Shown in pieces: positions 3,448 through 56,693 of a stretch of 64,000 nt of DNA. The notes beneath the pieces were generated by a model. It made no database searches. It was not told the origin of the DNA and worked only from the letters and a program-made list of their open reading frames with translations. The translations under genes and the position numbers were made by a program. Source of the stretch: Octopus vulgaris (Eukaryota); the NCBI GenBank assembly GCA_951406725.2, contig OX597819.1:127038001-127102000 (forward strand). Reading direction: 5' to 3'. How positions within the stretch are numbered: the first letter of the stretch is position 1; each line of letters starts with the position of its first letter.

Positions 3448-4374
3448 ACACCAACTGCAATACCATGATAATTTCTTACAAAAGAATGACGTCAAAGATT
3501 AAGATTAAACTGTCGACATTCTACATTTGTGTCAATGTCTGATATTTTTATTGTGAGAATCTTTGAATCACTAAAATCCCAAGCTCTGGATTCTGAGGAA
3601 GCGAGGGCGACGTACTTAAAGAATAAGTGAACCGAATTCCTTGCAGAATTTTTTGCGTACCTCGATATTTTGCATTCAAAATCTGTCGCGTTTGACTTTG
3701 CTTCATTCCAAGTCAGAAAAAATATATCAGTCAAGTACATGGTTCGATTTGCTCGGCTATACTCGCCCTGAGAACTATATTAAGGTTACACGTGTTTGTG
3801 GAGTGCTCAGCTACTTGCACGTTAATTTCACGAGCTTAGAACTTAGAGCGATGGGAGGTATTCTGTTAAGAAAGATGCAACATATTTGAGAGACGGCACA
3901 TTAAAGAAGCTGATTAAGGGTATCTTATGTATAAGCATCATGCTGTAACGGTCTGATAATCTGATGAGCGGGAAGTATGATACCTTTTACGAAAACAAAT
4001 TCTGGTAATTATTCCAATTTCACGTATGTCCACAAATAATCTATAATCTGTAAATATCAAGATGTTATCCTCGACTCCGCAAAATAGTCTTATGCAATAA
4101 GCACCAAAGTGCATAAGGTCAAAACTGGATTGCATAAGAATGAGATTCCTGGGACGGATACAATTAATCCTTTGGAGGTACCGAGTTTTTGTCTGCTATA
4201 TTTTGTTGGGGGCTGGTTTTAAAAGTAATTTCACATTGACTGAACATTGAATAATGAAACGGCTATCAACTGACAGGATGAAGCAATTATATGTGTGTGT
4301 GTATGTGTGTGTGTATGTGTGTGTGTATGTGTGTGTGCGTGCCCGCGTGCGTAAGTGTGCGTGCGCGCGCGCAT

Positions 4375-5610
4375 ATATATATCTATGTATGTATGCAAAT
4401 ATATAGAAATATATACATATGTCTGAATGCAAATGTATATATATATACATATGTATAAGCGACATATATTTATGTATATATACATATATAAGTACATATT
4501 CATATATGTATATATATATATATATATACATACATGTATGTATGCAAATGTATAGGTATATATACATATGTCTGTATGCAAATGTATATAGACATATGTA
4601 TAAGCGACATATATTTATGCATATATACATATATAAGTACATATTCATATATGTATATATATATATATATATACATACATGTATGTATGCAAATGTATAG
4701 GTATATATACATATGTCTGTATGCAAATGTATATATACATATGTATAAGCGACATATATTTATGTATATATACATATATAAGTACATATACGTATATGTA
4801 TATATATATACATATATGTATGTATGCAAATGTATAGGTATATATACATATGTCTGTATGCAAATGTATATATACATATGTATAAGCGACATATATTTAT
4901 GTATATATACATATATAAGTACATATACGTATATGTATATATATATATACATATATGTATGTATGCAAATGTATAGTTATATATACATATGTCTGTATGC
5001 AAATGTATATATACATATGTATAAGCGACATATATTTATGTATATATACATATATAAGTACATATACATATATGTATATATATAGATATATGTATGTATG
5101 CAAATGTATAGGTATATATACATATGTCTGTATGCAAATGTATATATACATATGTATAAGCGACATATATTTATGTATATATACATATATAAGTACATAT
5201 ACGTATATGTATATATATATACATATATGTATGTATGCAAATGTATAGGTATATATACATATGTCTGTATGCAAATGTATATATACATATGTATAAGCGA
5301 CATATATTTATGCATATATACATATATAAGTACATATACGTATATGTATATATATATACATATATGTATGTATGCAAATGTATAAGTATATATACATATG
5401 TCTGTATGCAAATGTATATATACATATGTATAAGCGACATATATTTATGTATATATACATATATAAGTACATATACATATATGTATGTATGCAAATGTAT
5501 AGGTATATATACATATGTCTGTATGCAAATGTATATAGACATATGTATAAGCGACCTATATTTATGTATACATACATATATAAGTACATATACGTATATG
5601 TATATATACT
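4375..5610. repeat. Minisatellite, about 9 units of 117-145 bp (mode 137) built from TA/TATG sequence
   Basis: The anchor taagcgac recurs at 4456, 4601, 4746, 4883, 5022, 5157, 5294, 5431 and 5548. Confidence 0.9.
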
Positions 5611-22500: not shown

Positions 22501-23197
22501 TAAATCAATGATTCTAAAAATAAAAAATGGGATGGTCTGGTTATATACTTCAAATGGCAGGTGAACACACCCAAATAACTGTTTTGTGGTGAGCTTTGGA
22601 GGGAAAATGCAATCGGTGTAAATCTAGAAAGAGCTTTATGGACTGCATAACGACTATCATCAAATCACTTGGAATGGACCCAAAGGACATAGAAACCCTT
22701 GCTTCGGATCGAGCTGGATGGCAAACAAAACTGTAGATTGGAGTGAAAGCTTTTGAGGAGGTCAGGATAACAAATGCAACACTCAAGAGAGATTTAAACA
22801 AGAATGTTGCGATCAACGAGACGGTGAATCGCGGCGAACTTTTTATGTGTACAGTCTGTGACAGACCATGTCTTTCTTTTGCTGGGCTCAAATCTCATTT
22901 GCAGACACATGAAAAGCGAACCTCCACTAACTACTCTACCTCTATATATCTATGCACATCTTTCAATGCCATGTATGCCATAAGGTCTGCAAATTTAACG
23001 GAGACTTCGAAAGATATTTTAAGATCCCCGAAGATCAGAACTTAACTGCAGCTCATGGTGGTCCAAATCATATACGCAATCTATGTGGGTGTATTCTCAA
23101 TACATTGACTGGTTTAAAAAGCTACATTAGACACCATGATGCATCTAAGGTGTAAGTACAAGGGGTGGTCAGACTGCATAAAGGGTAGACAAACACC
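19590..23197 (+). mobile_element. Near full-length decayed RTE-clade LINE (APE endonuclease, RT, C-terminal C2H2 zinc fingers)
   Basis: EN motifs LSETRL, GAGFAL, SIYAPT and DKLVILRYFN; RT motifs KSPGFDGI, FRGILLFPVVGKVFARIL, ESQ*GFR, FVDLSKAFDTVNR and GVKQG; LLYSSEMW; zinc finger CTVCDRPCLSFAGLKSHLQTH. Many stops and frameshifts. Confidence 0.93.
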
Positions 23198-29547: not shown

Positions 29548-32788
<3,241 letters not shown>

Positions 32789-35259: not shown

Positions 35260-35304
35260 CACACGGACTTCAGTTTCTGGGTATTGACCCGTCATCAGCG
35301 TGTG
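35260..35304 (-). ncRNA. Type I hammerhead ribozyme motif within a short element (~35097-35365) abutting (TA)n
   Basis: Minus strand: CACACG-CTGATGA-cGGGT caat ACCCa-GAAA-CT ga AG-TC-CGTGTG. It has a 6-bp stem I, a complete core and a GUC site. Confidence 0.8.
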
Positions 35305-53108: not shown

Positions 53109-53486
53109 ACTCTTTTACTTGTTTCAGTCATTTGACTGCGGCCATGCTGGAGCACCGCCTTTAATCGAGCAACTCGACCCCGGGACTTATTCTTTTGTAA
53201 GCCCAGTACTTATTCTATCGGTCTCTTTTGCCGAACCGCTAAGTAACGGGGACATAAACACACCAGCATCGGTTGTCAAACACAGACACACAAACACACA
53301 CACGCATATATATACATATATACGACGGGCTTCTTTCAGTTTCCGTCTACCAAATCCACTCACAAGGCTTTGGTCGGCCCGAGGCTATAGTAGAAGACTC
53401 TTGCCCAAGGTCCCACGCAGTGGGACTGAGCCCGGAACCATCTGGTTGGTAGACAAGCTACTTACCACACAGCCACTCCTGCGCCT
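53109..53486 (-). mobile_element. SINE family B
   Basis: Reverse complement of the 28757 type. Confidence 0.9.
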
Positions 53487-53556
53487 ATGTATACATATAT
53501 GTATGTATATATATATTTACCGGAAAAACTGATGCTGCAGATAATACTTTACTACA

Positions 53557-54690
53557 TTTATGTAAGTAAAATTACGTAATATGTTAATAGTGAAACATGT
53601 ATGCGAATAATCCATGTTTTTATTGACGTCCTAGTATGCAGTCCTGCAAATTATATTCATCTGGACGGTCGCACCGATGATCTACGGATATTTATGTAAG
53701 TAAAATTACGTAATATGTTAATAGTGAAACATGTATGCGAATAATCCATGTTTTTATTGACGTCCTAGTATGCAGTCCTGCAAATTATATTCATCTGGAC
53801 GGTCGCACCGATGATCTACGGATATTTATGTAAGTAAAATTACGTAATATGTTAATAGTGAAACATGTATGCGAATAATCCATGTTTTTATTGACGTCCT
53901 AGTATGCAGTCCTGCAAATTATATTCATCTGGACGGTCGCACCGATGATCTACGGATATTTATGTAAGTAAAATTACGTAATATGTTAATAGTGAAACAT
54001 GTATGCGAATAATCCATGTTTTTATTGACGTCCTAGTATGCAGTCCTGCAAATTATATTCATCTGGACGGTCGCACCGATGATCTACGGATATTTATGTA
54101 AGTAAAATTACGTAATATGTTAATAGTGAAACATGTATGCGAATAATCCATGTTTTTCTTGACGTCCTAGTATGCAGTCCTGCAAATTATATTCATCTGG
54201 ACGGTCGCACCGATGATCTACGGATATTTATGTAAGTAAAATTACGTAATATGTTAATAGTGAAACATGTATGCGAATAATCCATGTTTTTATTGACGTC
54301 CTAGTATGCAGTCCTGCAAATTATATTCATCTGGACGGTCGCACCGATGATCTACGGATATTTATGTAAGTAAAATTACGTAATATGTTAATAGTGAAAC
54401 ATGTATGCGAATAATCCATGTTTTTATTGACGTCCTAGTATGCAGTCCTGCAAATTATATTCATCTGGACGGTCGCACCGATGATCTACGGATATTTATG
54501 TAAGTAAAATTACGTAATATGTTAATAGTGAAACATGTATGCGAATAATCCATGTTTTTCTTGACGTCCTAGTATGCAGTCCTGCAAATTATATTCATCT
54601 GGACGGTCGCACTGATGATCTACGGATATTTATGTAAGTAAAATTACGTAATATGTTAATAGTGAAACATGTATGCGAATAATCCTTATT
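53557..54690 (+). repeat. Tandem array of ~8.4 near-identical 134-bp units, one type I hammerhead-like motif per period
   Basis: Units start at 53557, 53691, 53825, 53959, 54093, 54227, 54361, 54495 and 54629. Motif: TCGCA-CYGATGA-stem II-GAAA-CATG-TA-TGCGA. Confidence 0.9.
54607..54678 (+). ncRNA. Hammerhead motif with canonical CUGAUGA core (last copy in the array)
   Basis: tcgca 54607-11, ctgatga 54612-18, gaaa 54664-67, catg, ta 54672-73, tgcga 54674-78. Confidence 0.72.
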
Positions 54691-55005
54691 TTTATTGCTT
54701 TTTCTTTTGTCTTACTCGATTGCGTTTTGGTTGTTTTGCTGAATTTTTCTTTAGAACATTTCTTAGTGGTAAGACCATAGCGGATCTATTTCTAGCATAA
54801 GGGTGTCCACATAGTGGTATCCCTCTAATATGTGTATATATATACCTGTTTTTTCGTTGTTTAAAAAAATGTCCGTTTCCATGGTTTTGTTTTTATGCTT
54901 TCGTTTCTCATTGTGTTCGACGTTTATTTGGTGTCATGTATATATACATATGGATGTAGGTAGGTACATATATGTATATATGCATATGTTTTATTTATTA
55001 TTTTG

Positions 55006-55198: not shown

Positions 55199-55987
55199 CG
55201 CATAGAATCGCTATTGTAAGATATACTTGCGAAAATTTAGTAGCAAGCGTTTGAGAGCTATCAAGCACCACAGAATGAAAACTGTAACATGGGTACTCTG
55301 AGAAGAAAAAAAAAAAAAAAAGATTTGAGATTCCCTTAATGACAACAGCAGATGTTGACTGGATTGTTGATCACTACATACTTTAGACTCTAAATAAAAA
55401 CGAATCGTAAAAGAAAATACAGAAAATCTCTTATTTCTCGATGATGATATCAGATACTTCTAAAGACATGCTATATGTCTTGTTAGTTAGTTTTTGATTT
55501 TCTTTCAGTTTTATTTATTTATTTATTTAATTATTTATTTATTTATTTACAAAAATATGTGTAATTTTTAAAATATATTTTTAGAGTACTTGTTTTTTTT
55601 TTTTGTAACATGTATGATTCTGTTTTTAGGTTCTAGAGGTTAGTTTAGAAGTATGTAGTTTGTTATTTTATTTAAGTAACCATTTTCCGTGTTGTAACTA
55701 TTGAGAAAAATAAAAAAAATAAGAGAGAATATATAGTTATTGGGATAAAAAAAATAACAAAAAAGTAATCAAACGGGGCTTCTTTACGAGGCTTTACTGT
55801 ATTATGAAAGAAAAGGGAGCGATGGTGGAAATAGTATAAGTGAGCCCAAGAAAAATTGAGTTGCAAAATGTAAGATCGATTTCTAAAAAAGTGACAAAAG
55901 CCGAAAGGATTTGTAAGGGTAGATACCATGCCACACACAAATAAATGTATGTTTACTGGTTTATTGGTTAAACAGACATACATGCAT

Positions 55988-56614
55988 AGGGAGCGTTTAC
56001 GAAATAAACAAAAGACGAAGGCAGGTGGTGTACAAAACAAACAGATATATTAGTATAACGCTCAGGAATAGAAAAAGTCTTTTACGTTTCGAGCCTACGC
56101 TCTTCTACAGAAAGGGACACAGAAAAAACAAGGAGAGAAAAAAAATGTGTAGTGGCTAACGATCTATCATGGAGACTGCTATATATATATAGGGAGCGTT
56201 TACGAAAAAAAAAATCAATAGACGAAGACAGGTGGTGTACAAAACAAACAGATGTATTAGTATAACGCTCAGGAATAGAAAAAGTATTTTACGTTTCGAG
56301 CCTACGCCCTTCTACAGAAAGGGACACAGAAAAAAACAAGGAGAGAAGCACGGAGAGAAAACAAAATGTGGGAAGTGGCTAACGATCTATCATGGCGACT
56401 GCTATATATATATATATAAAGAGAGTTTACGAAAAATCAAAAGACGAAGACAGGTGGTGTAAAAAACAAACAGATGCATTAGTATAACGCTCAGGAATAG
56501 AAAAAGTCATTTACGTTTCGAGCCTACGCTCTTCTACAGAAAGGGACACAGAAAAAAACAAGGAGAGAAGCACGGAGAGAAAAAATGTGTGCAGTGGCTA
56601 ACGATCTATTATGA
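55988..56614 (-). mobile_element. Trimer of ~200-bp units separated by (TA)n, each with a minimal HHR variant
   Basis: Units start at 55988, 56191 and ~56418. Minus strand: CTTT-CTGTAGA-a-GAGC gtag GCTC-GAAA-CG-TA-AAAG (e.g. 56079-56114). Confidence 0.8.
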
Positions 56615-56693
56615 ATGCATACCTACATATATAAATACATATGCGTGCGCGCAAACACATGCACATACACACACACGCACACACACACACACA

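Follow-up and report, generated by a model that had tools for sequence, protein, structure and literature searches.

The systems closest to the locus described here are the metazoan non-LTR retrozymes, the axolotl hammerhead ribozyme (HHR) HHR_Amex2, the minimal HHRs in the pLTRs of Penelope-like elements (PLEs), and satellites built from segments of transposable elements. Retrozymes, as presented in PMC7229834 and bioRxiv 10.64898/2026.07.22.740005, are ORF-less, AT-rich and arranged head-to-tail with one type I HHR per unit, and these traits are shared by a dispersed family of Octopus vulgaris, referred to below as the parent family, from which a short tandem array of predicted HHRs probably descends. 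The likeness extends to a weak palindromic stem III suiting cleavage as a dimer, a monomer circle predicted to be well self-paired, the coexistence of PLEs, and dispersed monomers outnumbering multimers. The parent unit, at ~540 bp, is longer than the 150-450 bp given in PMC7229834 and lies within the 51-972 bp of consensus lengths in bioRxiv 10.64898/2026.07.22.740005. Unlike in the described retrozymes, the family core is CCGAUGA, and the 134-bp array repeats a sub-unit of the monomer at one locus rather than the unit that spreads. In the same preprint PLE ends are described as amplified locally in tandem, and one of nine tested dimers as cleaving; its lengths, PLE-end amplification and cleavage rate make a 134-bp unit less novel and lower the prior expectation that it cleaves.

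HHR_Amex2 (PMC7229834) resembles the array motif in having U·U at the base of stem II and a stem III of 2 bp; its monomer is described there as weak (22% after 1 h) and its dimer as more active. The array motif in addition carries U4C and a GUA site, its loop III is palindromic and 2 nt long, and an internal loop interrupts its long stem II. The minimal HHRs of PLE pLTRs (PMC4209133, PMC8557442, PMC11167929) share the 5-bp stem I, the long stem II and the palindromic 15.2-16.2 region. According to PMC4209133 they keep the G10.1-C11.1 pair and cleave weakly as dimers, whereas that pair is absent here and unpaired bases stand on both sides instead of a single bulge. PLE pLTR systems are also alike in their (TA)n targets, inverted 5'-truncated segments and more-than-unit insertions, but no RT + GIY-YIG ORF continuous with the fetched family copies was found within ~1.5 kb flanks, and the parent monomer showed no blastn similarity to an autonomous PLE (13 loci of the one PLE family examined, pLTR included). 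Satellites of transposable-element segments, which bioRxiv 10.64898/2026.07.22.740005 attributes to tandem duplication followed by unequal crossover, share with the array a short segment in tandem at one locus and a higher-order sharing of a variant. The difference is that the segment repeated here is just big enough for a complete predicted ribozyme, so that the array, retrozyme-satellite-like in layout and most likely a local accident in itself, might in principle give rise to a smaller retrozyme of its own. A literature search that included the full-text term CCGAUGA and mostly covered papers outside subscription, whose supplements may hold examples, turned up neither cephalopod retrozymes nor U4C combined with a 10.1·11.1 mismatch.

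The array lies in a window of 64,000 nucleotides, which is the whole stretch of O. vulgaris DNA that was analysed, and is enclosed by a longer element, a point absent from the first-pass annotation. The features of the locus are as follows.

53484..53516, no strand: TA-rich microsatellite, left insertion end and presumed target site (sequence; TRF row 53486-53516)
53517..53556, minus strand: inverted 40-bp piece from the upstream part of the parent monomer, a 5' inversion (blastn)
53556..54697, plus strand: tandem array of 134 bp x 8.5 (TRF; junctions and parent comparison)
53556..53625, plus strand: first, partial unit with the HHR 3' half (GAAA, ACAUGU, GUA at 53599-53601, 3' strand of stem I) and no core
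53625, 53759, 53893, 54027, 54161, 54295, 54429 and 54563, plus strand: shared G of the eight head-to-tail junctions
53669..54544, plus strand: seven predicted type I HHRs with core CCGAUGA (U4C) and U10.1-U11.1
53669-53740 and then each 134 bp up to 54473-54544, plus strand: the series of these internal HHRs
53735, 53869, 54003, 54137, 54271, 54405 and 54539, plus strand: bases after which the internal HHRs are predicted to cleave
54607..54678, plus strand: final predicted HHR, core CUGAUGA, predicted cleavage after 54673
54563..54832, plus strand: final unit and unique 3' tail, colinear with the parent monomer (97.4% to L009/L072)
54833..54846, no strand: short TA-rich run, right insertion end (TSD and microsatellite indistinguishable)

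TRF reports the array at 53556-54697 with a period of 134, 8.5 copies, 99% matches and no indels, in agreement with the near-identical 134-bp array of eight complete motifs that had been described before. Nine GAAACATGTA sites follow one another at exactly 134 bp (last base 53601, 53735 ... 54673), and the eight complete cores read CCGATGA seven times and CTGATGA in the final unit, as tallied in the first-pass annotation. Whole-period variants are confined to A>C at 54158 and 54560 and C>T at 54613. The annotated structural elements are all present: stem I (UCGCA/UGCGA), CUA/UAG at the base of stem II with a U on either side, the hairpin distal to it, and the ACAUGU palindrome. The proposed stem I extension UGGA/UCCA holds in the internal units and is one pair shorter in the terminal unit, where CCTTAT replaces the CCATGT of the internal units 3' of the final cleavage site (differences at 54686 and 54688). 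Each junction fuses parent TTTTATTG to parent GACGTCC, so that ~406 of the monomer's ~540 nt are skipped.

The type I hammerhead reading is borne out by the covariation of its stems between related families. All eight array motifs pass a descriptor consisting of the core, stem I of at least 5 and stem II of at least 3, which was composed after the motif was seen, as against none of 20,000 dinucleotide-shuffled 134-mers taken as circles on both strands. Three helices can be drawn: stem I of 5 bp, which is open, stem II with a base of 3 bp, and stem III of 2 bp. In 28 distinct motifs of the mismatch families, taking the 5 bp of stem I together with the 3 bp at the base of stem II, 221 of 224 cells are paired, compared with 56 and 72 when the strands are slid by one or two, and two-sided changes occur at five of the eight stem pairs; the motifs were picked by core pattern and family with the stems ignored, and related copies are counted repeatedly, so that about four families represent the independent events. 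URA stands 5' of the 3' strand of stem II in 27 of the 28 motifs, YRA in all, and N17 is always H. Since the stem cells pair despite two-sided changes, the hammerhead structure is, by sequence comparison, kept across related families.

The core of the predicted HHR is doubly variant, with U4C plus a mismatch at 10.1·11.1. The consensus CUGAnGA...GAAA...UH is absent from seven of the eight window motifs and fits the final unit alone. In place of the R10.1-Y11.1 pair the array motif has U·U; among the 28 motifs U·U occurs 14 times, and the sister families contribute A·A (11), C·A (2) and U-A (1). As described in PMC3088659, U4C is a natural variant which lowers in vitro activity, yet allows viroid infectivity, and U10.1-U11.1 is a natural, tolerated and active HHR variant (PMC3088659; PMC7229834). 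Rfam gave no match at gathering score in the window and no hammerhead match at E<=10. Matches of the final units to snoR128 (21 bits, cut-off 40) and mir-365 were set aside as far sub-threshold and non-HHR. The sole other descriptor match of the window, at 35298 on the minus strand (stem I 6, stem II 4), may be due to chance.

The core followed by GAAACATGTH was matched 393 times genome-wide, compared with 19 for the reversed control. Among the 100 matches listed, 66 were assigned to families by eye and 34 were left out: 29 belong to the array's family (27 C4, 2 U4), 7 to an A-GGA..UCC-A family (all C4), 8 to an A-AGA..UCU-A family (2 C4, 6 U4), and 22 to a canonical GAAG..CUUC family (all U4). 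In exact 19-mers of the array's family, C4 was found in 81 of 88 outside the array, and with the array the ratio is 88 to 8. The supposition that CCGAUGA is the degenerate and CUGAUGA the good form is thus reversed in the parent family, C4 being the majority (81 vs 7 outside the array), and U4C as a decayed CUGAUGA was rejected; the U4 minority fits CpG loss. Substitutions were counted at 75 of 1042 CpG sites and 114 of 3913 other C/G sites, the T share being inflated by loci that were fetched with a T pattern.

A search of the genome (2.8 Gb, 227 contigs) with one 134-bp period returned 991 candidate places, of which 40 were scored at 93-98% identity. The scored dispersed copies nearly always cover query positions 24-151, leaving the junction out, and the dispersed copies run on beyond both GACGTCC (upstream) and TTTTATTG (downstream). 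Landmark mapping shows a circularly permuted parent, with two HHR motifs placed head-to-tail at 539 (L054), 541 (L056) and 532 bp (L058). The one monomer tested, that of L054 (539 nt), has 34% GC and a longest stop-free stretch of 85 aa, and its circular fold gives z -5.4 against 40 shuffles.

Among 55 distinct fetched parent-family insertions, an inverted segment was found in 23 and a TA repeat at most 24 nt from the 3' end in 37. The 3' ends of 42 fall either 160-179 nt (15 insertions) or 260-279 nt (27) past the cleavage site. Each of the 55 extends 120 nt or more beyond that site on its 3' side; they come from the best-scoring loci, and one of the queries favoured the longer end, so that these proportions are biased. 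Internal rearrangements were seen in several insertions. PLEs are described as using (TA)n targets and leaving inverted 5'-truncated copies (PMC8557442), and PLE RT as initiating internally at AT-rich DNA (PMC11167929). By its (TA)n flanks and 5' inversions, the parent family has a Penelope-type insertion anatomy. An ORF-less unit with one type I HHR-like motif, its head-to-tail copies, and its dispersal over many loci with marks of retrotransposition (991 candidates, 37/55 with TA, 23/55 with inversions) together identify the parent as non-LTR retrozyme-like at the sequence level.

The 134-bp unit behaves differently. The 134-bp junction pattern had eight exact matches in 2.8 Gb, all inside the array, and the pattern of two HHR 3' motifs 40-480 nt apart had nine, eight of them in the array; these junction searches require exact matches in one assembly, so mutated copies and alleles absent from the assembly escape them. 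The ninth match (L143, C18:80.76 Mb) was rejected as a second short-period array: there a SINE lies within a family copy and ~90-100 bp of target, including the HHR 3' half, is duplicated around it. Among 88 listed exact core matches, same-strand neighbours less than 1 kb apart outside the array were, by eye, 532 and 539 bp from each other. The search for other arrays suggested in the first-pass annotation, run by exact patterns in this assembly, therefore found a single genomic locus, and spread of the 134-bp unit to several loci was not found by the exact junction search, nor was another short-period array. The fold of the 134-nt circle gives z -0.8 against 200 shuffles, without the self-pairing of a retrozyme. 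Because it occupies one locus and has no self-paired circle, the 134-bp unit fails as an independent retrozyme family.

From left to right the insertion consists of a TA run, an inverted piece of the parent, one partial and seven internal units, the stretch 54563-54832 and a further TA run. The inverted piece at 53517-53556 matches L009, L015, L016, L025 and L029 by blastn at 92-97% on the opposite strand, and carries a T shared, by eye, with L072 (the same locus as L009, 1.4 Mb from the window), a comparison in which one copy passed the allele filter. The stretch 54563-54832 is 97.4% identical to L009/L072 (C6:125.70 Mb), with five minority alleles in common, and the 3' end at 54832 lies 159 nt past the cleavage site, at the shorter of the two frequent 3' ends of the parent family. 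A segmental duplication between the window and L009 was not seen: in 8 kb vs 9.5 kb only the element and one common repeat match. Exact copies of the CTGATGA 19-mer are found on C6 in five of eight cases, three within 4.1 Mb (125.70, 127.09 and 129.80 Mb). Several rare alleles of the window recur in the nearest CTGATGA copy, on C6, a hint that copies spread locally from a single source. Directly 3' of the insertion, 54849-55039 matches another repeat at 71%, which also stands beside a family copy in L118.

Variants within the array bear on the way it was formed. The final unit and tail depart from the column majority at 8 of 270 sites, 5 of them in common with L072 and 3 not, while an internal unit departs at 2 of 134 and is without two of the alleles shared with L072 (C at core position 4 and A at the 54686 site). 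The absence of these two shared minority alleles implies that the internal and terminal copies had two different parent copies as templates, or that conversion acted later. C4 in the internal units would need at least two junctions or conversion, and one simple jump would be insufficient for the seed. Two positions vary within the 1,007 internal bases: both are A>C at one and the same place in the unit, separated by 402 bp or three units. At the tail's private divergence of 3/270, ~11 internal changes would be expected (Poisson P(<=2)=0.001), a yardstick of 3 differences in 270 bp, some of which are possibly inherited or RT errors. The near identity of the internal units and the recurrence of a variant three units apart favour recent DNA-level expansion or homogenisation over rolling RT, as far as the sequence can tell. 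Polishing of an assembly can homogenise tandem units and so mimic recent expansion, and the A>C at the variant site was also seen in one of 53 family copies, so the recurrence could be a hot spot.

The array is thus probably a single-locus array of a predicted HHR segment from the dispersed ~540-bp ORF-less family, with a likely DNA-level expansion after a likely Penelope-type RT insertion of one rearranged copy. On the model of known retrozymes, parent multimers would be transcribed, cut by their HHRs, circularised and then reverse-transcribed in trans by a PLE RT/GIY-YIG protein. RT might have begun at 54832, within the tail of the parent, and after copying one HHR might have switched to another HHR copy of slightly different sequence, skipping ~406 nt with 1 nt of microhomology; alternatively, the gap might stem from a later deletion. 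In either case 134-bp repeats would come to lie next to each other, together with an inverted 5' end. The internal unit may then have been expanded and homogenised by unequal crossover, slippage or conversion, giving internal units that, by prediction, cleave poorly and a final unit that is the best candidate for cleavage. Of the two origins proposed in the first-pass annotation, local amplification of a Penelope-type element segment fits better, with the amendment that the segment comes from an ORF-less ~540-bp monomer and not, by blastn, from the pLTR of the PLE examined.

The other origin, a rolling-circle multimer of a 134-nt circular RNA, is disfavoured by the single junction locus and the shuffle-like fold of the circle, and we regard it as unlikely. 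Under this account RT would start on a ~540-nt template, switch by homology to a 134-nt deletion circle, roll 7.5 times and end with an inversion, all in one event. The unit is indeed one complete predicted HHR with its stem I extension, the internal units are uniform and differ at three sites from the final one, as from one circular template, eight junctions fall at the same base with a microhomology of 1 nt, and published consensus lengths reach down to 51 bp (bioRxiv 10.64898/2026.07.22.740005). Against this, the assembly holds no second junction locus as a source of the circle, the independent changes are too few for the divergence of the tail, the same variant repeats three units apart, the circle pairs with itself like shuffled sequence, and its HHR is predicted to be blocked. 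The more ambitious version, in which a self-cleaving circular RNA of 134 nt, derived from a 540-nt retrozyme, left the array as its cDNA footprint or has its working source there, a minimal retrozyme at birth in a clade whose active doubly non-consensus hammerheads were amplified to hundreds, is rather improbable. Repeated RT jumps on a linear multimeric parent RNA at insertion, with no circle and with later homogenisation by gene conversion, would agree with the frequent template jumps of the family (23/55 inversions and several internal rearrangements); eight jumps at one base with a 1-nt microhomology are, however, hard to expect when, by exact search, no other copy has used that junction even once, and this course of events appears quite doubtful.

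It is very improbable that the assembly has inflated the copy number and that the true locus has one or few junctions. Near-perfect unit identity would be expected in that case, but variants distinguish the units, and a 69-nt contig of DNA run X2 equals 53586-53654 over a junction with no mismatches at a depth of 130, compared with 10-14 for the other contigs of the parent family in that run. This contig has 29 letters on one side where the bridging rule asks for 31, comes from a run that may be the assembly's source, and is the sole junction contig listed, a SINE within the read-search stretch having swamped the tables. Part of the stretch occurs in 20 of the 24 run rows, none of them recorded as RNA. 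Contigs of run X10, guessed to be RNA and possibly DNA, also match the parent family and were set aside. There is likewise very little probability that the motif has lost its ribozyme function in the family and survives with a dead core for protein binding or priming, or that it belongs to a different class of RNA, for instance the C/D snoRNAs. Two consensus departures in one core (U4C and the 10.1-11.1 mismatch), the weak snoR128 match, the HHR mutants that are reported in PMC11167929 to have no effect on PLE insertion in vitro, and the eight of nine Xenopus retrozyme dimers that did not cleave in vitro in bioRxiv 10.64898/2026.07.22.740005 would suit this view. Opposed to it are the covariation of stems I and II in 28 motifs picked by core, the constant H at N17, the kept YRA (URA in 27/28), and the description of U4C and U10.1-U11.1, each by itself, in natural active HHRs (PMC3088659, PMC7229834).

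The internal units of the array are predicted to be poor cleavers, since the junction and an internal G allele would let CAUGUUUU pair with GAAACAUG, covering the core of the internal HHRs. Four of the internal HHRs were tested and gave a P(stem I) of 0.00-0.01; the final one reached 0.54 (local window), and 45 parent copies had a median of 0.35, 16 of them also lying below 0.1, so that folding does not set array and parent sharply apart. The final unit, as the sole one with appreciable predicted stem I, may be the best candidate for cleavage. In natural parent dimers three of four HHRs had P(stem I) <=0.01 and one was high; with one of four motifs scoring high, equilibrium folding is weak evidence.

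A very abundant young PLE family with RT and GIY-YIG domains and many long open frames is present in the genome and is possibly still active; it was found at 23,148 candidate places, of which 128 were scored at 97-100% identity, with open frames of up to 1,214 aa. Two of its copies are located at:

L144:1752-5384, plus strand: young PLE family copy
L145:2252-5893, minus strand: young PLE family copy

Pfam recognises RVT_1 (E 3.9e-8) and GIY-YIG (E 0.0055, under Pfam's cut-off) in the family; a Pfam search of the first PLE fragment gave nothing, and two other fragments gave sub-threshold matches. The family carries a CxxxxCxxC linker, which we take to suggest the Neptune clade. CxxxxCxxC linkers of PLEs are described in PMC8557442. 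By analogy with the systems of PMC7229834 and bioRxiv 10.64898/2026.07.22.740005, the parent might be mobilised in trans by this abundant PLE, a partnership that we only infer because no sequence link between parent and PLE was found.

Two additional non-coding families of ~545-585 bp have the same HHR architecture (L089, L112-L114 and L107-L111, L115, L116, L122). They show A·A at 10.1·11.1, a GUU site, C4 or U4, frequent inverted pairs and (TA)n ends; they are ~70% alike, with self-repeats of 547 bp (L089, L114) and ~585 bp (L108), and had no blastn match to the array's family. The canonical GAAG..CUUC family with 22 of the listed core matches (L079, L080, L096, L098, L101-L105) combines its standard core with G10.1-C11.1, an extended stem II and GUC as its site.

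At least three related families of ~540-590 bp have thus kept hammerhead stems by compensatory change despite the 10.1·11.1 mismatch, two of them having been amplified mainly with U4C. As descriptors that demand CUGAnGA and Rfam models miss such families, counts of animal genomic HHRs are probably too low. The array, for its part, offers a clean natural test of how retrozyme satellites originate, by RNA rolling or DNA crossover, because the parent, the junction and the template alleles are all readable.

Other repeats lie in the same window. At 55978-56642 on the minus strand, 1.3 kb from the array, a 222-bp tandem repeat holds three minimal-HHR-like motifs (56083-56110, 56290-56317 and 56512-56539) with core CUGUAGA (A6U), a 4-bp stem II and GAAACGUA; the similarity to the 3' repeat of the young PLE with RT and GIY-YIG (L144/L145), where the motif is CUGUUGA, amounts to 75-78%. 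A TA-rich satellite of 137/274 bp occupies 4373-5607 with ~7 units at 95%. At ~29700-31000 and 31300-32600 a microsatellite pattern and near-identical reading frames occur twice, ~1.6 kb apart, suggesting a local tandem duplication.
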